Of a stretch of 64,000 nucleotides of DNA, positions 50,810 through 64,000 are shown piece after piece. Numbering within the stretch: the first letter of the stretch is position 1; every line of letters begins with the position of its first letter. A model generated the notes under the pieces. It worked only from the letters and a program-made list of their open reading frames with translations. It did not search any database and had not been told where the DNA came from. The position numbers and the translations under genes are program-made. Origin of the DNA: Sphingomonas sp. (lineage in GTDB: Bacteria > Pseudomonadota > Alphaproteobacteria > Sphingomonadales > Sphingomonadaceae); NCBI RefSeq assembly GCF_036388215.1, contig NZ_DASVSH010000031.1, positions 90,675 through 154,674 of the forward strand, written 5' to 3'.

Positions 50810-53800
50810 CTAGAACTTCACTTCCGCGGACACCGTGAACGAACGTCCGCGCGGATCGGCAACGCGGGGTTCCCAGGAGCCGCCCGAACCCGAGTTGCTG
50901 TCATAGGTGATCGCGAAGGGGGGATCGGTGTCGAAGATGTTCCTGACGCCTGCCGTCAGCGACAACCGGTTGTCGATCCGCTGCGAAATCGTCGCATTGT
51001 AGATCATGTAGGGCTTAACGCGCGGATTGAAGTCCGGTCGTGCGGCGCTGGCCGGCAGCGTCTGGTTGGCGTAGCCGCTGCGGTAGATTTGCGAGAAGCT
51101 CAGCCCGAAATCGCCATTAGTGTAGGTGACAAAGGCATTATGCTTCCACTCGAGGCCGAGATCGCCCAGCAGCGTAAACTTGCCGACGAGGTTCGTGTAC
51201 GGCAGGTTCGGCAACAGCTTTTCACGCTTGTCGAGCAGATAGGTGCCGTCCAGCCCAAAGCCGATCACCCCTCCCAGGGCCTCGAACCCGCCGCGCGCGA
51301 CGAACTCAAGTCCTTTCGTCCGCCGCGAGCCGAAGTTGCCAGTCCGCAGATCGACCAGCGTGATGATGCCGTTGGTCCTTTGGATGCGGTCCCCGAACGA
51401 TGAGATGTTCGCAAATAGCTGCGGAATGGTAATCGCGCTGATGGTGTTATCGACCCCGATGTTCCAATAATCGACCGACAGGCTGAAGCGGCGTGCCGGC
51501 TGGAATACGACGCCTACGCTATATTGCTTCGAAGTCTCCGGCCCTAGCGTCAGATTGCCGCCGCTGATGGAATCAGGAGTGATCGCCGCGCAGCCGGGCT
51601 GCGGACCCGCCGTCGTCCCTTGCGGGCAGGTTGTGGGATCGACCAGGGTATTGCCCGGGTTGACCAGCCGCACTTGGCCGTTGAAAATCTGGTTGAATGT
51701 CGGAACACGGAAACCAGTGTTGTACGAGGCGCGGAACATCAGCCAGTCGGCCGGCCGGAACTTGGCGGTTACCTTCGGATTGACGGTCGAACCGAACCCG
51801 GAATAATCGTCTACGCGCCCGGCGACGGTCACTTCGAGCGAACTCAGAATCGGGATCAGTACCTCGGCATAGGCCGCCTTCACGTCGCGGTTGACCTCCG
51901 GCAGCGCGAACGCATTGTCGAACGGCGCGTTGAAGATCGATGGCGACACGAGCGCGCCGGGCGAGCCCGCATCGAACTTGTAGCTTTCGCGCCGGTAATC
52001 GACCCCGACTGCCATTTTAACGTCACCGGCCGGCAAGCCGAACAGGCTGCCCGAAATCGAGGCGTCGAATTGCTTGACCTCGTACTGGCCACCGTAAAGC
52101 GTGACGCCGTCCGCCGACACGGATTGAAGAGCCGCGAGGGCCGCGGGCGTCTGGGCCAGGGAAAAGGGATTGAGGATGCCGCTGTTGAACAGGCCGACGA
52201 TGCCGGGCGCCGTCGCGCCGGCCCCGGTCGGCGCGCGCGGATCGGCCTGGCCGATCACCGGTACGGGTTGGCCCGCCACCGTCGCGTTCGCGGTCTGCGT
52301 GGAGTTCGTATAGACACCGGTGTAGTGATAGCCTGAGCCTAGCGTACTGTCGGACTTGCTGCGCGCATAGGACGCGCCCGCTTGGTAATCCCAGCCATCG
52401 AACAGCGGGCCATCGACTCCGAGCGCCACACGAAACGTCCTGGTGTCGGTCACCAGCGAACGCTCGCCGCAGTCGAGGCAGCGGTAGCGGTATGCGATCG
52501 GTTTGCCGTAATTGCCGACCGCATCGACCGTACGATCACCGACCGCGCCAACCGCGGGAAGCACGGCGGCGATGCGATCGTACACTTGGTTGTAAGTCGG
52601 CGCGGTCAGCGCATTGAGCGGATAAGCGATAGGCAATGACGTGCCGTTGCCGGTATATTGATTGTTGGAAAATGCCTTGCGCGCCGTCGCGTCCGAACCG
52701 GTGACTTCGACAAAAACTTCGTGAGCGCCACCAAGCCGGACCGTACCGCGCGCATAATAGGTCAGCGTCTCCAGCGGCTGCTGAAGCGTCGCGGCACGCG
52801 CCGTGTCCCACGAACAGGCCAGCGCCGCCCCCGGCACCGCCCACAAAACCGAGTCATAGTTCATGCCGCCATCGACCGACGCACAGCCGGCGCCGCCCGG
52901 CAGCCGCAGCGGGTTGACGCCGCCGTTGGCAGCCTGCGTCGTACCCGGTATGAAAAACGCCGGATTGGGGGTCGTGGTGCCCGGCAGGACGGCCAGATTC
53001 GTCGCGCCGGTCGTCCCGCCCAGCAACGTGCCGGTCTGCGCGATGCCGATGCCCGCACCCGTCGGGTTCAATTGCTGCGCCGTCGCGATCGGCGTACCGC
53101 GGGTGTCGATCGACAGGCCACGATTGGGCTGATTGCCATTCACGAAGTCGCGGTCGCGGCCGAACAGTATGCCGTTCCAGCTCTTGCTGACTGCGCCCAT
53201 CACGTTGAAGCCGTCCTCGGCCAGGTCGCCGTAGCCGGCGGTCGCGGACAGGCGGTAGATCGGGCTGTCGCCCTGCTCTGTAATGTCGGTAAAGCCGTTA
53301 AGCGTAAGCCCCTGAAAGTTGGTCTTGGTGATGAAGTTGATCACGCCGCCGATCGCGTCCGTGCCATAGATTGCCGAAGCACCGTCCTTGAGCACCTCGA
53401 TGCGGTCGATCGCGGCGAACGGGATCTGGTTGACATCGACTGCCGAGCCGCCTTGGCCGTGTGACGAAACGCGGCGGCCGTTGAGCAGGACGAGCGTCGC
53501 CGACGAGCCCTGTCCGCGCAGGTTCGCGGCCGACAGGCCGTTCTTGCCACGCGAATCAGCGCCGACCACGTCCGAGTTCGAAGAGAGATTGTCGTTGCCG
53601 GTTCCGTTGCTCGACAGGAAGCTGATGAGCTGTTCGGGGCTGCTGATCCCCTCCCGCGTCAGCTCCTGGTTTGTGATGATCTGCAGGGGCAGCGCCGAGT
53701 TGTTCGGGTCCTGCTTGATGCGCGATCCGGTGACGAGAATCTGGGCGCCGCCATCGGCGCCCTGATCGGCATCGCTCGTCGGCGTCTCCGCGGTGGTCGG

Positions 53801-53920
53801 CGTCGTCGCCGGCTGCGTGGTGCCTTCGGTGGAGACCTGCGCGACCGCAGGCAGCGCGCCTGCGAGCGCGGCGAAAGCCGTTCCCGAAGCGAGAATCAGT
53901 TTGAGCGACGAAGCAGCCAT
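50810..53920 (-). CDS. TonB-dependent outer-membrane receptor (1036 aa)
   Basis: Signal peptide, ILVTGSRI TonB box, TLVLLNGRR, IDRIEVLKDGASAIYGTDAIGGVINFIT, DPRGR...VKF C-terminus. Confidence 0.96.
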   Translation of the reverse strand: MAASSLKLILASGTAFAALAGALPAVAQVSTEGTTQPATTPTTAETPTSDADQGADGGAQILVTGSRIKQDPNNSALPLQIITNQELTREGISSPEQLISFLSSNGTGNDNLSSNSDVVGADSRGKNGLSAANLRGQGSSATLVLLNGRRVSSHGQGGSAVDVNQIPFAAIDRIEVLKDGASAIYGTDAIGGVINFITKTNFQGLTLNGFTDITEQGDSPIYRLSATAGYGDLAEDGFNVMGAVSKSWNGILFGRDRDFVNGNQPNRGLSIDTRGTPIATAQQLNPTGAGIGIAQTGTLLGGTTGATNLAVLPGTTTPNPAFFIPGTTQAANGGVNPLRLPGGAGCASVDGGMNYDSVLWAVPGAALACSWDTARAATLQQPLETLTYYARGTVRLGGAHEVFVEVTGSDATARKAFSNNQYTGNGTSLPIAYPLNALTAPTYNQVYDRIAAVLPAVGAVGDRTVDAVGNYGKPIAYRYRCLDCGERSLVTDTRTFRVALGVDGPLFDGWDYQAGASYARSKSDSTLGSGYHYTGVYTNSTQTANATVAGQPVPVIGQADPRAPTGAGATAPGIVGLFNSGILNPFSLAQTPAALAALQSVSADGVTLYGGQYEVKQFDASISGSLFGLPAGDVKMAVGVDYRRESYKFDAGSPGALVSPSIFNAPFDNAFALPEVNRDVKAAYAEVLIPILSSLEVTVAGRVDDYSGFGSTVNPKVTAKFRPADWLMFRASYNTGFRVPTFNQIFNGQVRLVNPGNTLVDPTTCPQGTTAGPQPGCAAITPDSISGGNLTLGPETSKQYSVGVVFQPARRFSLSVDYWNIGVDNTISAITIPQLFANISSFGDRIQRTNGIITLVDLRTGNFGSRRTKGLEFVARGGFEALGGVIGFGLDGTYLLDKREKLLPNLPYTNLVGKFTLLGDLGLEWKHNAFVTYTNGDFGLSFSQIYRSGYANQTLPASAARPDFNPRVKPYMIYNATISQRIDNRLSLTAGVRNIFDTDPPFAITYDSNSGSGGSWEPRVADPRGRSFTVSAEVKF

Positions 53921-54165
53921 TGGTTTTCCCCCTGAGCGCGCAGATTCCGGCAGCGCAGACCGGCACATTAAGTAACAAAGATGTGGCACCGCACCATAGT
54001 ATCTTTTCGGAAATCCATAACCCCCGGGCATTGCGGCGCTCACTCTTCCGCGCAAGCGTTGCCCGGCGGCAACAGTCGCGCGCTTATTGACTTTGCCTCG
54101 CCCTTTCCGGACTCATCGTCGGGTCAGGAGAGACTTTTCGATGCACCGCGACAGGACCATTCCGC

Positions 54166-55731
54166 TTGGCTGATCCCCACGACGCGGTGCCCCCGCCCGC
54201 AATCCCGCCCGGCGCCGGGCGCATGGCGCTCTATGTCCTGCTGGGCTTCTCCGCCGGCCTTCCCTTCTACATGTTTTCCACGGTGCTCAGCGTGCGGCTT
54301 GCCGAGCACGGCGTGGTGCTCGCGGTCATCGGCTTCTTCGCCTGGGTGCAATTGCTGCCCACCTTCAAGTTCCTCTGGGCGCCATTCCTCGACAAATATG
54401 ACGTGCCCGGCTTCGCGCGCTTCTGGGGCAAGCGCCGCGGCTGGATCATGCTGTCGCAGCTCGGCATATTCACTTCGATGCTGGCGATGGCGCTGACCTC
54501 GTCAGACGCCAATCTCTGGCTTACCGCATTGTTCGCGGTGCTGCTCGCCTTCTGGACCACCACGCTCGAAGTCGCCGCCGACGCTTGGCGCATTGAACTT
54601 GCACCCACGCCGCAAGAGCAAGGCCCCGTCGCCGCCTCGAACCTGTGGGGATACCGCACAGCGATGGTGGCGGCAGGAAGCGGCGCGCTGCTCTTCGCCG
54701 ATCCCGCCGGCAGCATCGGCCCCGCATTGTTCGGTCTCGGCATCACGCCGGGCTGGATTTCATCGTATCTGCTGATCGCCGCCGGCGCTTTCATTCCGCT
54801 TCCCATCCTTGCGCTGCTTCCCAGGCAGCCCGGCTGCACCGGCAATCGCTGGTCTGCGCTCGCCGCCGGTCTGGGCGCGAGCGCGCTCATGCTGCTGGCA
54901 GTCCTCGCCGGCACGGCTGCGCTCGGCTGGCTCCTGCTCACTGCCGCGGCCCGCATCGGCATCACTGCCGACACCAATGTGCTGCCCTGGGTGCTCGGGA
55001 TCGCAATGGCGCCCTTCGTCGTCCTGGCCTTCGCGCTCCCCTGGATTCGCGATGCGAAGCCCGACGATCCGATCCGGGCGTCCACTGCGATCGGCCCCTA
55101 TGCCGATTTCTTCTGGCGCTATGGCTTCCTCGCCATCGTGTTGCTCGCCTTCGTCTCGATCTACCGGATGGGCGACGTGCTGGCGCTCAACCTCTCCAAG
55201 CCGATGATCCTCGACCTTGGCTACACCAAGAGCCAGATCGGCTGGGCGGACGGCGCGGTCGCGCTTATGGCGAGCATCATCGGCGTAGGGATAGGCGGCT
55301 TCATGGTCACCAAGTGGCGCTGGGGCGTCACGCTCACCGTGGGCGCGATCTTTGCGGCGATCGGCAATTTCGGCTTCGTCTGGCTGGCGCACATGCCGGT
55401 GAACCAGAACACGCTCTATGTCGCCACCGCCGCCGATCAGTTCGGCAATGGCATGGCCGGTGCGGTGTTCGTGGTCTACCTGTCGATGCTCTGCAATCCG
55501 CGCTTTCCCGGCGCGCAATATGCGTTCCTCTCCGGCTTCGCCTTCCTGCTCTCGCGCCTCCTGGCGGGGGCTGGAGGGTCCATCGTCAGCAAGCTGGACC
55601 AGGCCGGCTATAACGGCTTCGACATGTTCTTCTATTTCTCGGGTGCGATCAGCCTGGGAGCGCTGCTGTTCCTCCCGCTCCTGACAAACGCAAAGCCGCG
55701 CCCGGATGACCGCGAGCCTGTAGTCGCGTGA
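54166..55731 (+). CDS. ampG: AmpG-family MFS muropeptide permease (variant)
   Basis: LGFSAGLPF, KFLWAP.LD, GKRRGW, GYR, YRMGD, RFPGAQYAFLS; extra central TM hairpin. Confidence 0.85.
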   Translation: MADPHDAVPPPAIPPGAGRMALYVLLGFSAGLPFYMFSTVLSVRLAEHGVVLAVIGFFAWVQLLPTFKFLWAPFLDKYDVPGFARFWGKRRGWIMLSQLGIFTSMLAMALTSSDANLWLTALFAVLLAFWTTTLEVAADAWRIELAPTPQEQGPVAASNLWGYRTAMVAAGSGALLFADPAGSIGPALFGLGITPGWISSYLLIAAGAFIPLPILALLPRQPGCTGNRWSALAAGLGASALMLLAVLAGTAALGWLLLTAAARIGITADTNVLPWVLGIAMAPFVVLAFALPWIRDAKPDDPIRASTAIGPYADFFWRYGFLAIVLLAFVSIYRMGDVLALNLSKPMILDLGYTKSQIGWADGAVALMASIIGVGIGGFMVTKWRWGVTLTVGAIFAAIGNFGFVWLAHMPVNQNTLYVATAADQFGNGMAGAVFVVYLSMLCNPRFPGAQYAFLSGFAFLLSRLLAGAGGSIVSKLDQAGYNGFDMFFYFSGAISLGALLFLPLLTNAKPRPDDREPVVA

Positions 55732-56735
55732 TCGATCAGGCCTTCGCCCCCGCCGCTACCGCAATCGCCCAAGGCGGCATTCCCGGCGCGGTGCTTGGAG
55801 TCGTCACCGCCTCCGGCGAGCGCTGGACCACGCATGCCGGCCTCGCCCAGCGTGTCCCCCATCCCGAGCCGCTCACCGCCGATCACTGGTTCGACCTCGC
55901 CTCGGTATCCAAGGTCATCTTCACCACCACCGCGATCCTCCAGCTAGCCGAGCAAGGCAGAGTGGACCTCGACCGCCCGATCACCGATGCGATCCCGGAC
56001 CTCCGCCAATATGATGTAGCCAACGCCGCCGAGCGCAAGCTCACCTTCCGCGACTGCCTGGCCCACCGTACTTTCCTCCCCGCGGTGGAGCCGATCTACA
56101 CCTATGGCGACGATCCCCGGCGCCTGCGCGCCTTCGTCCTCCAGCGCGAATGGAAGCACGGTCCGCCGGTCTACTCCGACATCAACTTCATCCTGCTCGG
56201 CATCGCGATCGAGCGCATCACCGGCGCGCCGCTCGCCGCATGGCCGCTGGGCGCAGGTCTCGGCTTCGGCCCGCCCCCCGGCCCCGCCGTCGCCACCGAA
56301 TTCTGCCACTGGCGCGGCCGTGTGCTCAAGGGCGAAGTGCATGACGAGAATTGCGCGGCCCTGGGCGGCCAGGCCGGTCATGCCGGGCTGTTCGGCACGG
56401 TCGCCGGTGTCCTAGATTTCGCACAGGGGCTGCTGGACGGAAGCGGAGCCTCCCCCTTTATGCTTTCAGCAATCCGCGCAATCCAGCACGAGCACCGCAC
56501 CTGCGGCTGGGAGCGCAAATTCCCCGGCTGGTCGGGCGGTCAGGCCTGTTCGGACGACACGATCGGCCATACCGGCTTCACCGGCACCGGCCTCTGGGTC
56601 GATTTAGGGCGCGGGATCGCCTGGACGCTGCTAACCAACCGCGTCCACCCCACCCGCCATTTCGACAGCGGCATATCGGCGCTACGCCCCGCAACTGGTG
56701 ATGCTGTGATCGCGGCCTGGGGTTCGCTCTCATGA
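55728..56735 (+). CDS. Class C beta-lactamase-family serine hydrolase, AmiE/YbbE-like amidase candidate
   Basis: FDLASVSK (SxxK), YSDINF, GEVHDEN, GHAGLFG, GHTGFTGT, LLTNRVHP; no signal peptide; GTGA overlap with ampG. Confidence 0.85.
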   Translation: MIDQAFAPAATAIAQGGIPGAVLGVVTASGERWTTHAGLAQRVPHPEPLTADHWFDLASVSKVIFTTTAILQLAEQGRVDLDRPITDAIPDLRQYDVANAAERKLTFRDCLAHRTFLPAVEPIYTYGDDPRRLRAFVLQREWKHGPPVYSDINFILLGIAIERITGAPLAAWPLGAGLGFGPPPGPAVATEFCHWRGRVLKGEVHDENCAALGGQAGHAGLFGTVAGVLDFAQGLLDGSGASPFMLSAIRAIQHEHRTCGWERKFPGWSGGQACSDDTIGHTGFTGTGLWVDLGRGIAWTLLTNRVHPTRHFDSGISALRPATGDAVIAAWGSLS

Positions 56736-56758
56736 TCGGCGGAATCCAAACTCTAACT

Positions 56759-56841
56759 CCGCTCACCCTGAGCCTGTCGAAGGGTCGTCAGCCACAGTCG
56801 CATCGCTCTCGAATGTCCTTCGACAAGCTCAGGATGAGCGG
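56759..56841. repeat. Family-A REP pair
   Basis: CCGCTCACCCTGAGCCTGTCGAAGG ... CCTTCGACAAGCTCAGGATGAGCGG. Confidence 0.92.
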
Positions 56842-56859
56842 AAAAAACATGGAGTCCCT

Positions 56860-58050
56860 ATGATCTCGTTGCTCGCACTCACCCTCGCCCTCGCTCCGCT
56901 TGCAGACGACCCCACCCCCGCGGATCGCCTGGCGCACGATCACATGCTCACGCTCGACAGCCACCTCGATACCCCCGAGCTGTTCGAGCACCCGGGCTGG
57001 GAGTTCGATCGCTGGCACGATCGCGATTTCGACAAGAGCCAGGTCGATATCCCGCGCATGGAGCAGGGCGGGCTCGATGGCGGCTTCTTCGTGATCTATA
57101 CCAGCCAGGGGGAGCTGACTCCGCAGGGATATGCCAAAGCCCGCAACGGCGCTTTGACCCGCGCGAATTGGATCCAGCGCGTCGTCGCGGCGCATCCCGA
57201 CAAGCTCGCGATGGCGACCACCGTTGCCGACGCCGCACGCATCGCGAAAACGGGCAAACGCATCGTCTATCAGAGCATCGAGAACAGCTATCCGCTCGGC
57301 GAGGATATCAGCCTGCTCGCTTATTTTCACGGCCTTGGCGTTCGCATGGTCGGCCCCGTGCATTTCCGGAACAACCAGTTCGCCGACAGCTCCACCGATA
57401 AGGTCAAGGCTTTTGGCGGCTTCTCGCCCCTCGGCAGGCAATGGCTGGCCGAGATGAACCGCCTCGGCATGGTCGTGGATCTCAGCCATGCGTCCGACGA
57501 CACTTTCGATCAGGCGCTGGCGCTCTCCAAAACTCCGATCATCCTCTCGCACTCGGGTCCCAAGGCGATCTTCGACCACCCGCGCAATGTGGACGACGAT
57601 CGCATGCGCAAGCTGGCCAGGGCCGGCGGTGTCATGCAGATCAACAGCGTCTATCTGGTCGCCGGTGACAGCAACAAGGCGCGCGACGCCGTGCAGGACC
57701 GCCAGAACGACTGGTGGGCGCTGTCCGAAGCCGAGCAACGCAAGCTGATCGCCGACAAGGCGGTGGCTGACGCCACCGATCCCTATGCCGGCGCGGACTT
57801 CGAGCTCTTCATGAAGAGCCTCCTCCACGCCATCGCGGTGATGGGCGTGGACCATGTCGGCATCGGCGCGGATTGGGACGGCGGCGGCGGGGTGCGCGGG
57901 ATGGAGGATGTTACCGCGCTGCCCAGGATCACCGCCCGGCTGCGCAAGGAAGGCTTCAGGGATTCGGATATCGAGAAGATCTGGAGCGGCAACGTCCTGC
58001 GCGTGCTGAAGGCCGCCGAGGATTGGGCAGCGAAGAACGGCGGGAAGTAA
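56860..58050 (+). CDS. Secreted M19 (renal/membrane) dipeptidase
   Basis: Signal peptide, DSHLD, SIENS, HFRNN, EMNRLGMVVDLSH, LSHS, HPRNVDD, HVGIGADWDG. Confidence 0.93.
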   Translation: MISLLALTLALAPLADDPTPADRLAHDHMLTLDSHLDTPELFEHPGWEFDRWHDRDFDKSQVDIPRMEQGGLDGGFFVIYTSQGELTPQGYAKARNGALTRANWIQRVVAAHPDKLAMATTVADAARIAKTGKRIVYQSIENSYPLGEDISLLAYFHGLGVRMVGPVHFRNNQFADSSTDKVKAFGGFSPLGRQWLAEMNRLGMVVDLSHASDDTFDQALALSKTPIILSHSGPKAIFDHPRNVDDDRMRKLARAGGVMQINSVYLVAGDSNKARDAVQDRQNDWWALSEAEQRKLIADKAVADATDPYAGADFELFMKSLLHAIAVMGVDHVGIGADWDGGGGVRGMEDVTALPRITARLRKEGFRDSDIEKIWSGNVLRVLKAAEDWAAKNGGK

Positions 58051-58056
58051 CCCGCG

Positions 58057-58220
58057 TTCTCCCTCTCCCATCCGGAAAGGGTTGCGCAGACTTGGGTCTG
58101 CTCCTTCAGCAGACCCTGGTCGTAGCTGGGTGAGGGGTGTCGCCCCCTCAATAAGCGAACCCCTCACCCAATCTCCGCTAGGCGCTAAAGTGCCAAGCCG
58201 CGCTATCCCTCTGGGGCAGG
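58057..58220. repeat. Family-B modular palindromic element
   Basis: Reverse copy of the ..AAGTCTGCGCAACCCT arm joined to a CTAGGC..GCCAAG arm. Confidence 0.8.
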
Positions 58221-58226
58221 TTTGCC

Positions 58227-58338
58227 CCTTGCAATGTAGGATTTCGCCTGCTTGGCTGAGCCGGTCGACACTGCCGTCCGCTCTTTGAATTGTCGTTTCC
58301 GAAGCCCATGGCCAGTGCGAACATTCAGAACATTCGCG
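58227..58338. repeat. Dispersed ~113-bp non-coding element, copy 2
   Basis: About 89% identical to 26209-26321. Confidence 0.9.
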
Positions 58339-58387: not shown

Positions 58388-59818
58388 TCAATTCGCCGCC
58401 GCGATCACGATCAGCGCGGCATCCATGAATTTGGTCGCCGATCCGCTCGCGGGCATGTCATTGGCATAGAATGCAAAGACCAGCGTCTTCCCGCTCGCGG
58501 CAATCATATACCCCGCCAGCGCATTGGTCGCGTTAAGCGTGCCGGTCTTGGCGAAGACCTTGCCCTCCAGCGGCGTGCCCTTGAAGCGGTTGCGCAGCGT
58601 GCCGTCCACCCCGCCGATCGGCAGCGTCTCGCGCCACTGTGCACCCCAGGACTGGCCTGAGATCCAGCGCAGCATCTGCACCACGCCGCGCGGGCTCACG
58701 CGATTGTAGCTCGACATGCCCGATCCGTCGGACAAGTCCCATGCGGTGCGCGCCACGCCCGCCTTGGCGAGCATCGCCTCCACTTCGGTCATGCCGTCGG
58801 CGATCGATCCGCTGCCCTTTAGCAGTGATACGCGGCGGAGTGTCAGTTCCGCGTGGAGGTTCTGGCTGATCTTGTTGATCACCTTCAAATCCTCGGCCAG
58901 CGGCGCCGGCGTGAGCCTGGCGAGGACCGGCACGTCGCTCGAACCCGCGAACGGGCCCTCGCGCCGTGCGGGATCGTCGCCGGGCATCAGCGTTCGGTGA
59001 AAGGTGCGCACCTGCCCCTTCACCTTGACGCCGCGCTCCTCGAGCAGTGTCTTGAACCGCCAGGCCGCAAAGTGCGCAGGATCGTCGATCCCCATGCGGG
59101 AAATGTCCGGCTTGGCCTCCTTGCCGATCGTCCCGGTGACTCGGACGACGCGCTCGAACGGCAGCCGGTCATAGCCGATCCTGGTTTCCGCGCCCTCGAC
59201 CGTCAACGTCAGATTGTCGACCGTGTAGTAAGTCGAGCCCAGCGTGACCTTGCCCGCCTTGCCCGGTTCTCCGGGGGCCACGACCAACTCGACCTCATTG
59301 TCGTCGGCCGTAAGCGCAGACACGCCGGTGCCCGAGCGGGTCGGGATGTTGTTCCAGCTCATGCCCGGGCTCCAGCGCTCGTCGGGCATGCGCGTGTCAT
59401 CGCCGATCACATCCCTCACCCGCTTGGTCTTCGCGGCCACGGCATCCGCCAGCGCGGCCAGGCAATCGACCTTGCAGTCGCCAGCGGACGACATCCGGGC
59501 ATCGCCATTGCCGATCAGCACCACGTCGCGGCCGTCGATACGCACTGCGTTGCCGCCCGCCTCGTCCGGCGCGTTGACGTCGGGCATCGTCGCGAAGGCG
59601 ACCGCTGTTGAGAACATCTTGGTGTTGGAGGCCGGGATATAGCGCCCGTAGGGATCGATCGCGACGATCTCCGTCCCGTCCTCGCTCGCGACCATCAGTC
59701 CGAAGCGCGTGCCCGGCGCGGCCTCGGCCAGCTTGGCGCGAACCTGCGCGCGAAGGTCCTGCGCGGCGGCCGGCGTTGCGGCGGCCAGCGCCAGCACGAG
59801 GAGGAATGCATGTCTCAT
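58388..59818 (-). CDS. dacB: D-Ala-D-Ala carboxypeptidase/endopeptidase (PBP4, peptidase S13)
   Basis: PASNTK (SxxK), GNGDA, SQNLHAE (SxN), DGSGMS, GTLRNRF, AKTGTL (KTG); signal peptide. Confidence 0.95.
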   Translation of the reverse strand: MRHAFLLVLALAAATPAAAQDLRAQVRAKLAEAAPGTRFGLMVASEDGTEIVAIDPYGRYIPASNTKMFSTAVAFATMPDVNAPDEAGGNAVRIDGRDVVLIGNGDARMSSAGDCKVDCLAALADAVAAKTKRVRDVIGDDTRMPDERWSPGMSWNNIPTRSGTGVSALTADDNEVELVVAPGEPGKAGKVTLGSTYYTVDNLTLTVEGAETRIGYDRLPFERVVRVTGTIGKEAKPDISRMGIDDPAHFAAWRFKTLLEERGVKVKGQVRTFHRTLMPGDDPARREGPFAGSSDVPVLARLTPAPLAEDLKVINKISQNLHAELTLRRVSLLKGSGSIADGMTEVEAMLAKAGVARTAWDLSDGSGMSSYNRVSPRGVVQMLRWISGQSWGAQWRETLPIGGVDGTLRNRFKGTPLEGKVFAKTGTLNATNALAGYMIAASGKTLVFAFYANDMPASGSATKFMDAALIVIAAAN

Positions 59819-59893
59819 CCAAACGAGCCTAGCCGTAACGAACCCGGCGGCAAGCGCGCGATGCGCCACGCGGCCACAACCGCCGCCTATCCA

Positions 59894-60535: not shown

Positions 60536-61780
60536 TTAGTCGTCGTCGGCTGAACAATATATGGCTTCGTCCAATTCGCCTTCCCACCGAGCGACGGTGG
60601 TAGCGACAGTCAGATTGGCGCTGGCGCTCGGCACCGTGCGCGTCATGTCGAGCAGCCGGTCGAACGGGAGCACGAAGCCTACGACCAGCGCAGTCTGCTC
60701 GGGCGCGACGCCGACCGCGGACAGCACAGCGGCAAGCATGAACAGCGAGGCGGAGGGGACGGGCGCGGTCCCGAACGCCGCCAGCGCGCCGGTCAGCAGC
60801 ACGATCCCGTAAACCTGGGGAGACAGCGGGACGCCGAACGCCTGCAGCGCGAACATGCTGAGCAGCCCGACATACATCGCCGTGCCGTCCTTGCCGATGC
60901 TCGCCCCCAGCGGCAGCACCGTTGAAAATACCGGCCGGCCGATCCCGAGATTCTTCTCGGCCACACGCATCGCCACCGGCAGCGTCGCCGAGCTGGATGC
61001 AGTGGAAAACGCGACCGCCAGCGCGTCCACGATGCCGCGGAAGAAAGGCAGGATAGGCAACTTGGCGAACAATCGCAGGATCAGGCTGTGGACCAGCACG
61101 ATCTGGATCAAAGAGCCCAGCACCACGGCCAGGGCCAGCCAGCCGACATTGACGAACACCGCCGCGCCGTTCGCCGCCACCGCGTTGGCGATCAGCGCGA
61201 ACACGCCGAACGGCGTCGCCTCCATGACGATGCCAACCACCTTGAGCAGCACCGCGGACAGCGACTGCAGCCCCGCCGCGAACGGCTTGCCCGCCTCCCC
61301 CGCCACCACCGTGCCGACGCCAACCAGGATCGCGACAAAGATCAAAGCAAGCATGTCGCCCTTGGCAAGCGCATCGACGATATTGAGTGGGATGATGCCG
61401 ATCAGCTGCTGGTACGGTGTCACCGCCTCGCCCAGCGCATGCGGCGCGGCGGTGCCCAGCGGCGCGCCCACCCCCGGCTGGACCAGAGTCGCCACCAGCA
61501 TCCCGATCGAGACCGCGATCGCGGTCGTAAAGGCGAACAGCCCGATCGTCCGGCCGCCCAGGCTCCCCAGCCGCTTGGGATCGGCCAGCGCGGTAATCCC
61601 GGACGCGATCGTCACCAGCACGATCGGCGCCACGAGCATCCGTATTGCCCGCACGAACAGGTCGCCCATGAACATCACCGAAGGCGTGGCGGAGGGCCAG
61701 ACCAAGGCGAAGATCAATCCCAGCGCCAGCGCGGCCAGCACGCGTTTCCACAGCGCGATCGCGAACCACGCTCTCAGCAT
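60536..61780 (-). CDS. Dicarboxylate/amino acid:cation (DAACS) symporter
   Basis: AFSTASSSATLP, LPLGASIGKDG, GTAPVP, FDRLLDMTRT. Confidence 0.93.
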   Translation of the reverse strand: MLRAWFAIALWKRVLAALALGLIFALVWPSATPSVMFMGDLFVRAIRMLVAPIVLVTIASGITALADPKRLGSLGGRTIGLFAFTTAIAVSIGMLVATLVQPGVGAPLGTAAPHALGEAVTPYQQLIGIIPLNIVDALAKGDMLALIFVAILVGVGTVVAGEAGKPFAAGLQSLSAVLLKVVGIVMEATPFGVFALIANAVAANGAAVFVNVGWLALAVVLGSLIQIVLVHSLILRLFAKLPILPFFRGIVDALAVAFSTASSSATLPVAMRVAEKNLGIGRPVFSTVLPLGASIGKDGTAMYVGLLSMFALQAFGVPLSPQVYGIVLLTGALAAFGTAPVPSASLFMLAAVLSAVGVAPEQTALVVGFVLPFDRLLDMTRTVPSASANLTVATTVARWEGELDEAIYCSADDD

Positions 61781-61786
61781 GACGCT

Positions 61787-61939
61787 CTCCCCTCCCTCCT
61801 TGCAGGGAGGGGTCGGGGGTGGGTGCGCGCGTCTGCGCGCTCCAAAGACTCTATACCCCCGCGGCGTAAGCACCGGTCGAGGCATCGAGCCTCGCCCGCC
61901 GCTAACCCACCCCTGGCCACTCCCTTAAAAGGGAGGGGA
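61787..61939. repeat. Long palindromic element with family-B-type terminal hairpins
   Basis: CCCTCC..GGAGGGG and CTCCC-TTAAAA-GGGAG hairpins at the ends; GGGGGTGGGT / ACCCACCCC inverted arms. Confidence 0.8.
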
Positions 61940-61961
61940 AGCACATGCAGCACACTCAGCA

Positions 61962-63512
61962 TCAGCGGCAACTCCCCGTCGGCTTGTGCGGCAGCGCGCG
62001 GCCCGCCGCCTTGCCGGTCATCTCGCCGTTGCTCACTGCGACCACGCCGTTGACAACGACGGTCCGCACGCCGGAGGCCGGCAGCTTGGCCTGCTCATAC
62101 GTCGCCTGGGCGGCATATGTCTTGGGATCGAACACCACTACATCGGCGAAGGCGCCTTCCGTCAGTCGCCCGCGTCCCTTCAGCCCGAAGGTGTCGGCAG
62201 TAAGCGTCGAGCTGCGATAGATGAATTGGCGCAAGCTAAGCACATGCTCCGCTTTCACATACTTCGCGTATTTCCGCGCAAAGCTGCCATAGACGCGCGG
62301 GTGGCCGCCCGACGCATCCGAGCCGGTCATCACCCAGGGCCGCGCCATGAACGCCTTGATATCCGCCTCGCTCTGGTTGAACGAAACGACCCCCGGATCG
62401 GCAACCTTGATCACTTCCATCGCGGCGGTGACGGCGTCCACGCCCCGATCCTTCGCCACGGCGGCGAGCGTGCGGTTGGCGTACAGCCCCTCGACGATCA
62501 ACAGCTTCTCCGCACCACCGCGCTTGCGCAGATTCTCGATAATTCCGGCGCGCAGATCTTCGGCCCGGGCATAGGGGCCCAGCCGCTGAAGCAGCTTCTC
62601 GCGCCCGCCATCCTGCGCCCATAACGGGATCAGCGCGGCCACCAGGCTCGTGCCCGATGCAGACCAGGGATATTGGTCGGCCGTCACTTTCTGGCCCGTG
62701 CGCCGCGCCGCCTCTACCTTCGCGATGATCGCGCCCGCCTGACCGTGCACATCGACGCCCAGCGCCTTGATATGGCTGATATGCGCCGGAAGCTGGCCCT
62801 CGCGCCCTATCCGGATCGCCTCGTCGATCGCAGCGGCCAGCCCGACCGTGTATGAGCTTTCGTCGCGAATATGGCTGTCATAGGTGCCACCACGTTTCCC
62901 CGCCTCGCGCGCCAGCTCGATCACTTCCTCCGTTTTCGCGAAGCTTTGCGGCGCATAGAAGAGCCCCGTCGAGAGCCCCAGCGCGCCATGACACATGGCG
63001 TTCGCGACCAGACCCTTCATCTGGGCCATTTCCGTCACGGTGGGCGCGCGGTCAGCCTCGCCGATCACTTTCTCGCGGATCGCGCCGAAGCCTACATATG
63101 CCGCATAGTTGATGCCCACCGATTGGCCGCTGCCCAGCACCCTGGCCATGTCCGGACTCCCACCGCCGTCATTGCCGATGAACGCGGTCGTCACGCCTTG
63201 CATCAGAAATGCGGGCACCAGCCTTTCGCCCCGGTCCTTGGACGCAAGATCGGAGCCCATATGCGTGTGCGGATCGATGAAGCCGGGCGCGACGATCATG
63301 CCTTTTGCCTCGATCACGCGCGTGGCGCGAACGTTGACGCGGCGGCCGACCGAGACGATCCGGTCGCCCCGTATCGCAACGTCGCCGACGAAGGGCGCCA
63401 TCGTCCCCGTGTAGACCGTCCCTCCCCGGATCAGCAGATCGACGCTTGGCAACGGGGCATTTGCGGCGCCCAGCGACAATGCGGCGGTTCCCAGAAGCAG
63501 CGCAACCTTCAT
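61962..63512 (-). CDS. Secreted N-acyl-D-amino-acid deacylase-like amidohydrolase
   Basis: Signal peptide, APGFIDPHTH, GVTT...GNDG, DSHIRDE, HISHIK, GSDA, HPRVYGSF.R, GAFADVVVFDP. Confidence 0.9.
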   Translation of the reverse strand: MKVALLLGTAALSLGAANAPLPSVDLLIRGGTVYTGTMAPFVGDVAIRGDRIVSVGRRVNVRATRVIEAKGMIVAPGFIDPHTHMGSDLASKDRGERLVPAFLMQGVTTAFIGNDGGGSPDMARVLGSGQSVGINYAAYVGFGAIREKVIGEADRAPTVTEMAQMKGLVANAMCHGALGLSTGLFYAPQSFAKTEEVIELAREAGKRGGTYDSHIRDESSYTVGLAAAIDEAIRIGREGQLPAHISHIKALGVDVHGQAGAIIAKVEAARRTGQKVTADQYPWSASGTSLVAALIPLWAQDGGREKLLQRLGPYARAEDLRAGIIENLRKRGGAEKLLIVEGLYANRTLAAVAKDRGVDAVTAAMEVIKVADPGVVSFNQSEADIKAFMARPWVMTGSDASGGHPRVYGSFARKYAKYVKAEHVLSLRQFIYRSSTLTADTFGLKGRGRLTEGAFADVVVFDPKTYAAQATYEQAKLPASGVRTVVVNGVVAVSNGEMTGKAAGRALPHKPTGSCR

Positions 63513-64000
63513 GGCCTTCCCCAAAAGCCGCGCGCGGGCGGCAGGAGCATCCCGCCTTCGTCCCGCACGCCGCCCGCGCGATCCTCCGCGAGCCAGATGG
63601 GGCCGTCAAGGTCCACGAAGTCCGACATGCGCGCGACATGCAGCGCAGCCGCGATCGAGAGTGAGGAGCTGACCATGCAGCCGGTCATCAGCCCCAGCCC
63701 CCGCGCACGGGTGGCGTGGGCCAGTTCCAGCCCGGCGGTAAGCCCGCCCGCCTTGTCGAGCTTCACGTTGACCACCTGATAGCGACTGGCGATGACGTCG
63801 AGGTCGGCCGCGACATGCACTGCTTCATCCGCACAGATCGGCACGGCGGGGGTGAATCCTTCCAGCCAATCGTCCTCGGTGGCGGAAACCGGCTGCTCGA
63901 GCAGATCGGTCCGCAGTTCGACGAGCAGCGGCTCGATCTCCCTGAGCAGCGCCTCGTCCCAGCTCTCGTTGGGATCGACGATCAGCCGGCAATCAGGCGC
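63509..64000 (-). CDS. Enolase-superfamily L-Ala-D/L-Glu epimerase / N-acetyl-D-Glu racemase (DgcA-like), 5'-truncated
   Basis: VDPNESW, LEQP, CADE metal ligands, NVKLDKAGGL, GCM, VDLDG; ATGA overlap with the deacylase; frame open to window end. Confidence 0.9.
   Translation of the reverse strand, partial: APDCRLIVDPNESWDEALLREIEPLLVELRTDLLEQPVSATEDDWLEGFTPAVPICADEAVHVAADLDVIASRYQVVNVKLDKAGGLTAGLELAHATRARGLGLMTGCMVSSSLSIAAALHVARMSDFVDLDGPIWLAEDRAGGVRDEGGMLLPPARGFWGRP

Follow-up and report, generated by a model that had tools for sequence, protein, structure and literature searches.

A divergent AmpG paralog coupled to a cytoplasmic serine hydrolase of the probable AmiE/PBP4B clade in Sphingomonas: a candidate accessory module for peptidoglycan fragments

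Mapping of peptidoglycan recycling beyond the gammaproteobacteria is only recent. The canonical AmpG-NagZ-AmpD pathway (E. coli, and Caulobacter with AmpG and AmiR) combines an MFS-type muropeptide importer with a cytoplasmic stem-peptide amidase, a zinc enzyme of the Amidase_2 family. AmiR, the AmpD homolog of the alphaproteobacterium Caulobacter, cleaves reducing-end muropeptides (PMC13046382). Alphaproteobacteria can swap the inner-membrane importer, as exemplified by the ABC importer YejBEF-YepA of A. tumefaciens, which works with AmpD (PMC9790009). AmpG itself is variable: A. baumannii AmpG1-3 provide a precedent for non-redundant paralogs (PMC13507758), T. forsythia AmpG for the carriage of non-anhydro disaccharides (PMC7670621), and the E. 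coli protein has a 6+6+2 arrangement of transmembrane helices, that of P. aeruginosa a 6+4+6 arrangement (PMC12214514). In B. subtilis, the secreted AmiE (YbbE), encoded in the murQ-murR-murP-amiE-nagZ-namZ operon, is a PF00144 MurNAc-L-Ala amidase acting between NagZ and NamZ (PMC10653849, PMC8054146); NamZ acts on MurNAc only after removal of the peptide (PMC8054146). Another PF00144 protein, PBP4B (YfeW) of E. coli, is encoded by the last gene of murQ-murP-yfeW and, as quoted in a later paper, was reported to be a DD-carboxypeptidase (Vega and Ayala 2006, cited in PMC5061867).

The window analyzed here, a stretch of 64,000 nucleotides of Sphingomonas DNA, contains a permease gene followed by a serine hydrolase gene. 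These genes and the neighbors discussed below are as follows.

50810..54055, minus strand: TonB-dependent outer-membrane receptor with Plug and TonB_dep_Rec barrel domains, divergent from the permease gene
54166..55731, plus strand: AmpG2 permease gene, 521 aa, divergent AmpG-family MFS protein (by sequence), with an alternative ATG start at 54223
54556..54588, plus strand: TM4 motif TTTLEVAADAW of AmpG2, from alignment with E. coli AmpG and AmpG1
54829..55053, plus strand: insert with two extra TM helices between TM6 and TM7 of AmpG2, from alignment, hydropathy and an AF2 model
55728..55731, plus strand: GTGA stop/start overlap of the permease and hydrolase genes, reading ...GTC GCG TGA / GTG ATC...
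55728..56735, plus strand: PF00144 serine hydrolase gene, 335 aa, cytoplasmic, probable AmiE/PBP4B clade
55890-55913, plus strand: motif FDLASVSK of the hydrolase, with the putative nucleophile Ser59
56860..58050, plus strand: periplasmic M19 dipeptidase (PF01244, 313.7 bits), 124 nt 3' of the hydrolase gene
58388..59869, minus strand: PBP4/DacB-type DD-endopeptidase/carboxypeptidase (PF02113 and TIGR00666, above cut-off)

The GTGA overlap described by an earlier, sequence-only reading of this DNA was read at the junction of the two genes. Since the distance between permease and hydrolase genes stays within −8 to +11 nt across seven orthologous loci, their tight coupling is not due to chance. 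The genes are adjacent in all seven related loci for which upstream DNA is available and in every genome of the five genera that hold both (5/5). The hydrolase is patchily distributed (7 of 81 genera), and its co-occurrence with AmpG2 over these 81 genera is significant (Fisher p = 4.8e-6). A promoter and terminator scan of positions 53900-58300 gave no signal exceeding shuffled expectation. Our literature search found no paper on an AmpG-type permease paired with a PF00144 hydrolase, and neither coupling to such a hydrolase nor to a TonB receptor is reported for A. baumannii AmpG1-3 or T. forsythia AmpG.

Judged by its sequence, the window permease belongs to the AmpG family, with changes in pocket residues, and is a paralog of the canonical AmpG (AmpG1) of the same genome, with which it shares ~31% identity. 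It scored 333.7 bits against the AmpG model TIGR00901, below the curated cut-off of 350, in comparison to 418 bits, above the cut-off, for AmpG1. The AF2 model of AmpG2 (pLDDT 80) had AmpG structures as its top five PDB matches (9j9z, 8zbb, 9c3f, 8zgz and 8zke), all of them cryo-EM entries. Among 301 alphaproteobacterial genomes, orthologs with at least 59% identity were confined to the family of the host. In TM4, FWTTTLEVAADAWRIE of AmpG2 takes the place of SASQDIVFDAW in E. coli AmpG and GATQDIVIDAY in AmpG1. The motif TTTLEVAADAW, which had been noticed earlier and is kept in seven orthologs, thus departs from the canonical (S/T)QDIxxDA(W/Y) by the changes Gln124Leu and Asp125Glu (E. coli numbering), at two positions whose roles in AmpG have been described (PMC11568325, PMC12214514). 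The alignment revealed two further pocket changes, Tyr59Pro and Lys265Gly. Loss of Arg365 is not claimed, since an invariant Arg stands one alignment position after this residue. Retained residues are Lys62, Asp129, Tyr152, Arg153, Asp238 and, in motif A, Asp70 and Arg80; Arg153 of AmpG hydrogen-bonds the anhydro bridge (PMC12214514). The extra transmembrane hairpin also proved to be present: an insert of ~73 aa between TM6 and TM7 gives two hydropathy peaks and forms two hydrophobic helices (residues ~228-263 and 273-295), which also appear in the AF2 model. Seven sphingomonad orthologs keep this insert, which neither AmpG1 nor E. coli AmpG contains. As AmpG proteins are known to differ in their additional helices, the resulting 6+2+6 layout is a variant rather than an anomaly.

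The second gene encodes a PF00144 protein (122.5 bits) containing all five of the motifs listed by the sequence-only reading, namely, FDLASVSK (residues 55 to 62), YSD (149 to 151), GEVHDEN (202 to 208), GHAGLF (217 to 222) and GHTGFTG (280 to 286). These motifs are invariant or nearly so among 42 homologs from many phyla, the catalytic elements S59-V-S-K62, Y149-S-D151 and H281-T-G283 being invariant. The proposed cytoplasmic location held: no signal peptide was found, the open reading frame has no room for extension upstream, and just ~12 residues separate the start codon from the domain. An N-terminal extension or hydrophobic leader is likewise absent from all alphaproteobacterial and Deinococcota relatives. 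The AF2 model (pLDDT 96.7) displays a class-C/DD-peptidase fold. Sequence, profile and fold searches found nothing closer than generic class-C, DD-peptidase and family-VIII esterase structures (15 to 24% identity, TM score of about 0.7); the fold cannot tell the functions of such enzymes apart. No match to the zinc Amidase_2 domain (PF01510) was found in the hydrolase.

Taken at face value, these structural neighbors could point away from peptidoglycan. EstB, other family-VIII esterases and class C β-lactamases resemble the hydrolase, the RhtX/FptX siderophore permeases are relatives of AmpG (weak match of AmpG2 to TIGR02718, 58 bits), and TonB receptors commonly carry siderophores, so that receptor, AmpG/FptX-like permease and esterase- or β-lactamase-like enzyme might together handle a siderophore, a lactam or an ester. 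We regard this as very improbable. The score of AmpG2 is 333 bits with the AmpG model and 58 bits with that of the siderophore permeases, and the protein retains muropeptide-binding residues. The class C models remain far below their cut-offs (38.7 bits for the best, for a cut-off of 825) and match the N-terminal part of the hydrolase only, and a cytoplasmic enzyme is ill-suited to act as a β-lactamase. Moreover, family-wide synteny associates the hydrolase with genes for MurNAc and GlcNAc.

Relatives of the hydrolase indicate to which branch of PF00144 it is likely to belong. A phylogenetic tree separated a 52-row hydrolase family from eight PF00144 paralogs of the same genome (SH-aLRT 89) and placed E. 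coli PBP4B/YfeW inside this family, together with homologs linked to NagZ, NamZ and MurQ. The nearest homologs outside the sphingomonads (36 to 44% identity) include NagZ-hydrolase, hydrolase-NamZ and NagZ-hydrolase-NamZ fusions; BLAST scores of the window hydrolase were 134 to 185 bits against fusion proteins and at most 53 bits against paralogs of its own genome. Among 80 loci from many phyla, neighbors of the family comprise NamZ, GH3 enzymes, MurQ, AnmK, a BadF-type sugar kinase and Dpp/Opp-type ABC importers. Of 19 loci with the closest cytoplasmic relatives, at least 10 have AnmK next to the hydrolase gene, including Deinococcus with the order anmK-murQ-hydrolase. Placement of the hydrolase in an AmiE/PBP4B clade therefore follows from relatives that are fused to, or located beside, NagZ, NamZ and MurQ, as in the amiE-nagZ-namZ segment of B. 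subtilis. Support from YfeW, the fusions and synteny is indirect. In direct comparison, YfeW is only weakly similar to the window hydrolase (27% identity, 80 to 87 bits), scores equally well against two PF00144 paralogs of the Sphingomonas genome, and groups with exported NagZ-linked forms (38% identity to the L041 protein). A PBP4B HMM was discarded as a membership test, since a paralog from the same genome scored 101.6 bits, against 79.5 for the hydrolase. The earlier assignment to the YbbE/AmiE family is thus supported, in this indirect manner, by the YfeW-containing clade and the NagZ-, NamZ- and MurQ-linked relatives.

By family and context, the hydrolase can be likened to B. subtilis AmiE, with which it shares the PF00144 serine-hydrolase fold and, through its family, the association with NagZ, NamZ and MurQ. 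The same chemistry would be predicted, i.e., cleavage of the MurNAc-L-Ala amide after the action of NagZ. Unlike AmiE, the window hydrolase lacks a signal peptide; its partner is an AmpG-type permease instead of a PTS (MurP), and the genome is devoid of murQ. YfeW, in the same clade of the tree, has DLASxxK, YSD, VHDE, GHAGLF and GHTGxTGT in common with the hydrolase, but is a 434-aa protein that is exported or membrane anchored. The DD-carboxypeptidase activity attributed to PBP4B raises the question of whether the hydrolase could be a cytoplasmic stem-peptide peptidase (a DD-carboxypeptidase or D-stereospecific amino- or endopeptidase) that leaves the MurNAc-L-Ala bond intact. PF00144 DD-peptidases, D-aminopeptidases and D-amino-acid amidases are among its best PDB matches, and several neighbors (the M19 dipeptidase, a D-aminoacylase-like amidohydrolase and a DgcA-like racemase) handle D-amino acids. 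We nonetheless consider this function improbable, since the order of domains in the NagZ-hydrolase-NamZ fusions is that of the NagZ, AmiE and NamZ reactions (PMC8054146), linkage to MurQ, AnmK and a sugar kinase points to the sugar branch, and an LdcA-type S66 peptidase is already encoded in the genome.

The genome also encodes the canonical AmpG1 and a cytoplasmic AmpD/AmiR-type amidase, the product of its single Amidase_2 gene, located on the same contig (C31:8305-9006). The other recycling genes comprise nagZ, ldcA (S66 peptidase), an mpl-like ligase gene and amgK-murU; NagZ-like and NamZ-like genes are found away from the window pair, on other contigs. AnmK and MurQ are absent from the genome. 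The sequence-only reading had described the permease as coupled to a serine amidase rather than AmpD, which is contradicted by the presence of AmpG1 and the AmpD-type enzyme in the same genome; the window pair is thus an additional module and not a replacement. Replacement of AmpD as a general rule was likewise rejected, as Amidase_2 is present in 13 of 18 hydrolase-bearing genomes, and also in this one.

We considered whether the pair could be specialized for non-anhydro MurNAc-peptides, i.e., those with a reducing end, derived from foreign walls or walls digested by lysozyme, a job beyond the AmpG/AmpD pathway. Since AnmK and MurQ are absent and AmgK-MurU, which uses free reducing MurNAc, is present, only reducing MurNAc should be salvageable in this genome. 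B. subtilis AmiE acts on MurNAc-peptides (PMC8054146), GlcNAc-MurNAc muropeptides are taken up by the AmpG of T. forsythia but not by that of E. coli (PMC9790009, PMC7670621), the AmpG2 pocket is unlike the canonical one, and the TonB receptor suggests exogenous substrates. AnmK is also absent from six of the seven genera with the hydrolase; however, the value for other genera is 42 of 74, the association is not significant (Fisher p = 0.14), and compensation for AnmK loss by the hydrolase was rejected on this basis. In addition, the AnmK genes beside the closest cytoplasmic relatives, the conservation in AmpG2 of the anhydro-bridge contact Arg153 (PMC12214514) and the precedent of Caulobacter AmiR, which already processes reducing-end muropeptides (PMC13046382), argue against such a specialization. 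A role restricted to reducing-end MurNAc-peptides, as first proposed, is therefore weakened without being refuted, and we judge it unlikely.

The surroundings of the pair are partly conserved. Full-length orthologs of the TonB receptor (53 to 71% identity) are divergently encoded upstream of AmpG2 in loci L014, L017, L019 and L021. In G047, a genome without AmpG2, the hydrolase is adjoined by another, different divergent TonB receptor. The signal peptide of the window receptor begins at residue 46, indicating that the true start is likely to be near 53920. The PBP4 gene adjoins the hydrolase gene in seven of eight sphingomonad loci, and also in G047 and G072. As the window PBP4 is the only one of the genome, this adjacency may represent inherited synteny instead of functional linkage. 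The M19 dipeptidase is context only, since it was found near the pair elsewhere just in locus L018 and its synteny is not kept.

The pair is most likely, as predicted from its genes, a variation on known recycling pathways. Our preferred reading, to which we assign a probability of about 60%, is that of an accessory module for uptake and processing of peptidoglycan fragments, which supplements the standard recycling genes of this genome. Its accessory, scavenging character is suggested by the occurrence of the hydrolase in few genera and by the divergent TonB receptor and PBP4 as conserved neighbors. Cell-wall fragments would cross the outer membrane, probably via the TonB receptor, and might be trimmed to monomers by periplasmic PBP4. 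AmpG2, driven by the proton gradient, would import GlcNAc-(anhydro)MurNAc-peptides. NagZ would then expose MurNAc, and the translationally coupled hydrolase would, in the cytoplasm, cleave the lactyl-L-Ala amide, with Ser59, Lys62, Tyr149 and His281 as putative catalytic residues, as AmiE does outside the cell in B. subtilis. The products, (anh)MurNAc and the stem peptide, would enter salvage or catabolism. Several points stand against this module. The absence of AnmK and MurQ leaves any anhMurNAc product unaccounted for, and the AmpD-type enzyme of the genome could make the hydrolase redundant. The below-cut-off score and changed pocket of AmpG2, the weak similarity of the hydrolase to YfeW and the DD-carboxypeptidase activity reported for PBP4B also count against it. 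In comparison to the canonical pathway, the accessory module would combine an MFS importer of a different layout with a putative serine amidase in place of the zinc enzyme. Its MFS importer also differs from YejBEF-YepA, an ABC importer; the nearest hydrolase relatives are operon coupled to ABC systems of the Dpp/Opp type.

A broader interpretation, which we judge less probable than not, is offered more tentatively. TonB receptor, PBP4, AmpG2 and serine amidase could form a dedicated system by which some sphingomonads feed on foreign walls, and cytoplasmic AmiE/PBP4B-type enzymes could be a widespread, so far overlooked class of serine (anh)MurNAc-L-Ala amidases. This would imply TonB-dependent uptake of muropeptides in Proteobacteria, amidases that complement or replace zinc AmpD, and interchangeable importers (AmpG2 or Dpp-type ABC systems).

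If the proposed function is correct, the AmpD step would have a second, zinc-free solution in a cytoplasmic serine amidase belonging to the AmiE/PBP4B clade, and the long-unexplained PBP4B family would gain a function. The same enzyme would have been joined to another importer, namely, an AmpG paralog whose pocket and helix layout are changed, beside a TonB receptor. The sphingomonad arrangement would then be a natural experiment on the substrate specificity of AmpG, and a candidate route for the scavenging of foreign cell walls by oligotrophic soil and water bacteria.

The window comes from a Sphingomonas genome of 3.27 Mb and 99.95% completeness (G000), in which it lies on contig C31, and contains the following genes around the permease-hydrolase pair.

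50810 to 54055, minus strand: TonB-dependent receptor, divergent
54166 to 55731, plus strand: ORF for a 521-residue MFS protein (AmpG2)
55728 to 56735, plus strand: ORF for a 335-residue PF00144 protein (the hydrolase), on the same strand as the permease
56860 to 58050, plus strand: periplasmic M19 dipeptidase
58388 to 59869, minus strand: PBP4/DacB

A cyclophilin gene is also listed among the neighbors with PBP4/DacB. The GTG start codon of the hydrolase gene lies on the TGA stop codon of the permease gene (GTGA), and all motifs that a sequence-only reading had quoted for both proteins were found in the sequence. The cytoplasmic location proposed for the hydrolase was also borne out, since the ORF cannot be extended upstream and the domain begins about 12 residues in. 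Beyond PBP4, the minus strand (60536 to 64000) encodes a symporter of the DAACS family, an amidohydrolase that resembles D-aminoacylase and has a signal peptide, and a DgcA-like protein (N-acetyl-D-Glu racemase or L-Ala-D/L-Glu epimerase) whose gene is cut by the window end; as a group, these genes resemble a catabolic block for D-glutamate or stem peptides.

The window permease is a paralog of the canonical AmpG of the same genome, with which it shares ~31% identity. AmpG2 scored 333.7 bits with the AmpG model TIGR00901, just below the curated cut-off of 350, and the second copy (AmpG1; C30:253374-254738) scored 418 bits and displays the canonical GATQDIVIDAYR motif. An alignment to E. coli AmpG, interpreted with the residue roles reported in cryo-EM studies (PMC11568325, PMC12214514), revealed that Lys62, Trp65, Asp70, Arg80, Trp83, Asp129, Tyr152, Arg153, and Asp238 are unchanged in AmpG2, that Gln124, Asp125, Tyr59, and Lys265 are replaced by Leu, Glu, Pro, and Gly, respectively, and that, for Arg365, an invariant Arg is found one alignment position off. 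The extra transmembrane hairpin previously noticed corresponds to an insert of ~73 residues that adds two helices between TM6 and TM7, in place of the C-terminal TM13/14 of the E. coli protein. Since the extra-helix layout varies among known AmpG proteins (6+6+2, 6+4+6, or none; PMC12214514), this 6+2+6 layout is a new variant rather than an oddity. The AF2 model of AmpG2 (pLDDT 80) contains 14 long helices, and AmpG entries take all of the top five places among its PDB matches. Among 301 alphaproteobacterial genomes, orthologs with at least 59% identity were found only in the family of the window; all remaining best matches were at most 36% identical.

The hydrolase has an intact catalytic set (S59-x-x-K62, Y149-S-D151, and H281-T-G283) that is invariant in 42 homologs, as are the family-specific residues H113, E191, R196, H205-D206, H218, R305, and R320. 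Its AF2 model is confident (pLDDT 96.7) and matched generic class-C, DD-peptidase, or family-VIII esterase folds only; structure searches found no solved structure of a close relative.

The informative step was a full HMMER scan of 1.84 billion representatives with the hydrolase, which revealed that many of its nearest non-sphingomonad relatives (36 to 44% identity) are multidomain proteins, including GH3(NagZ)-hydrolase and hydrolase-NamZ fusions and one NagZ-hydrolase-NamZ triple fusion (P0232, 1,349 residues, a single representative). In 80 genomic loci surveyed, the hydrolase gene adjoins genes for NamZ, GH3, and MurQ, many of the GH3 "neighbors" being the same single ORF as the hydrolase, with signal or lipoprotein leaders. 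The exported GH3 fusions (~950 to 1,000 residues, hydrolase as the C-terminal domain) occur in Acidobacteriota, Bacteroidota, Planctomycetota, and others (loci L041, L042, L053, L057, L058, L061, L068, L070, L071, L075, L082, L085, L090, and L092). These fusions and clusters reproduce the B. subtilis murQ-murR-murP-amiE-nagZ-namZ operon, in which AmiE, a PF00144 protein (PMC10653849), acts after NagZ and before NamZ to detach the peptide from MurNAc (PMC8054146). The product of the last gene of murQ-murP-yfeW in E. coli, YfeW/PBP4B (PMC5061867), shares the motif set of the window enzyme and fell inside the hydrolase family in a maximum-likelihood tree, with the eight other PF00144 proteins of G000 outside (SH-aLRT 89). 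The window enzyme scored 134 to 185 bits with the fusion proteins, 87 with YfeW, and at most 53 with its own paralogs, and YfeW scored 138 to 219 with exported forms and only ~80 with the window enzyme. The link between these two proteins is transitive rather than direct, each matching the fusion or exported forms better than the other. One hydrolase, 50% identical to that of the window, comes from an entry titled 'Mycobacterium sp. KBS0706' (L036, NZ_VCCH02000001.1) but groups among alphaproteobacterial and Deinococcota sequences, and this organism label may be wrong.

In the tree, the window enzyme groups with leaderless single-domain proteins of Alphaproteobacteria and Deinococcota in a clade of 21 rows (support 100). 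Outside sphingomonads, AnmK is encoded with the hydrolase in at least 10 of 19 loci, as in the Deinococcus arrangement GntR-anmK-murQ-hydrolase, and further partners are MurQ, a BadF-type sugar kinase, a GntR regulator, and Dpp/Opp-type ABC systems, whose two ATPase genes immediately precede the hydrolase in six loci. The sphingomonad loci no longer carry the ABC, AnmK, and MurQ genes; instead, AmpG2 lies immediately upstream of the hydrolase in all seven loci with upstream DNA (junctions of -8 to +11 nt). These cytoplasmic hydrolases would be paired with interchangeable importers, AmpG2 in sphingomonads and Dpp/Opp-type ABC systems elsewhere.

In a survey of one genome per genus (81 genera of the family), the hydrolase was found in 7 genera and AmpG2 in 6; 5 genera have both (Fisher p = 4.8e-6), in every case side by side. 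In four loci, the divergent gene encodes a full-length ortholog of the TonB receptor, and PBP4 is adjacent in 7/8 sphingomonad loci. The module can come apart, since an AmpG2 ortholog (64% identity) occurs without the hydrolase in one genus (L100, G038:C1:2157168-2158595) and another genus has the hydrolase, divergent TonB receptor, and PBP4 without AmpG2 (L098, G047:C4).

The sequence-only reading had proposed that the variant AmpG is coupled to an AmiE-like amidase rather than to AmpD. Its observations held, and its interpretation did in part, but this element did not: in addition to canonical AmpG, G000 encodes a single Amidase_2 protein (C31:8305-9006; 234 residues, no leader) whose best match is AmpD and which resembles Caulobacter AmiR, an enzyme cutting anhydro and reducing muropeptides alike (PMC13046382). 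Amidase_2 is also present in 13/18 other hydrolase-bearing genomes. Since canonical recycling genes are present, the AmpG2-hydrolase pair supplements the canonical route rather than replacing it. G000 also encodes a NagZ-like GH3 and a NamZ-like exo-muramidase (C2:48033-49265, L095 4034..5266; PF07075 plus PF20732, no evident signal peptide). The latter is combined with an AmgK-like/MurU-like pair; NamZ and this anabolic route have been reported as mostly mutually exclusive (PMC8054146). An S66 LdcA-like gene lies beside a Mur-ligase gene on the opposite strand (C16:157134-158849); the ligase scored 124 bits with the Mpl model (cut-off 389), and the two genes possibly form a divergent Mpl-LdcA pair for peptide recycling. 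Neither AnmK (PF03702) nor MurQ was found in G000, and AnmK is missing in 48/81 genera of the family. Although it has canonical AmpG, NagZ, and an AmpD-type amidase, this genome therefore shows no evident route for the anhMurNAc released by turnover of its own wall.

Specialization of the pair for reducing-end MurNAc-peptides, as initially suggested, would fit the only evident salvage route of G000, AmgK-MurU, which serves reducing MurNAc. We consider it unlikely, because relatives of the hydrolase show a linkage to AnmK and because AmpG2 retains Arg153, the residue that bonds the anhydro bridge (PMC12214514); the absence of AnmK from 6/7 hydrolase-positive genera is a nonsignificant trend (p = 0.14). 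The same AnmK linkage and Arg153 point to acceptance of anhydro substrates by the hydrolase family. Literature searches found no paper on the coupling of a PF00144 enzyme to a permease of the AmpG type, or on a cytoplasmic AmiE-type amidase. Together, these results suggest, with a probability of about 60%, that the pair most likely functions as an accessory module for the scavenging and processing of muropeptides, in which a paralog of AmpG is combined with a cytoplasmic serine amidase of the AmiE/PBP4B type.
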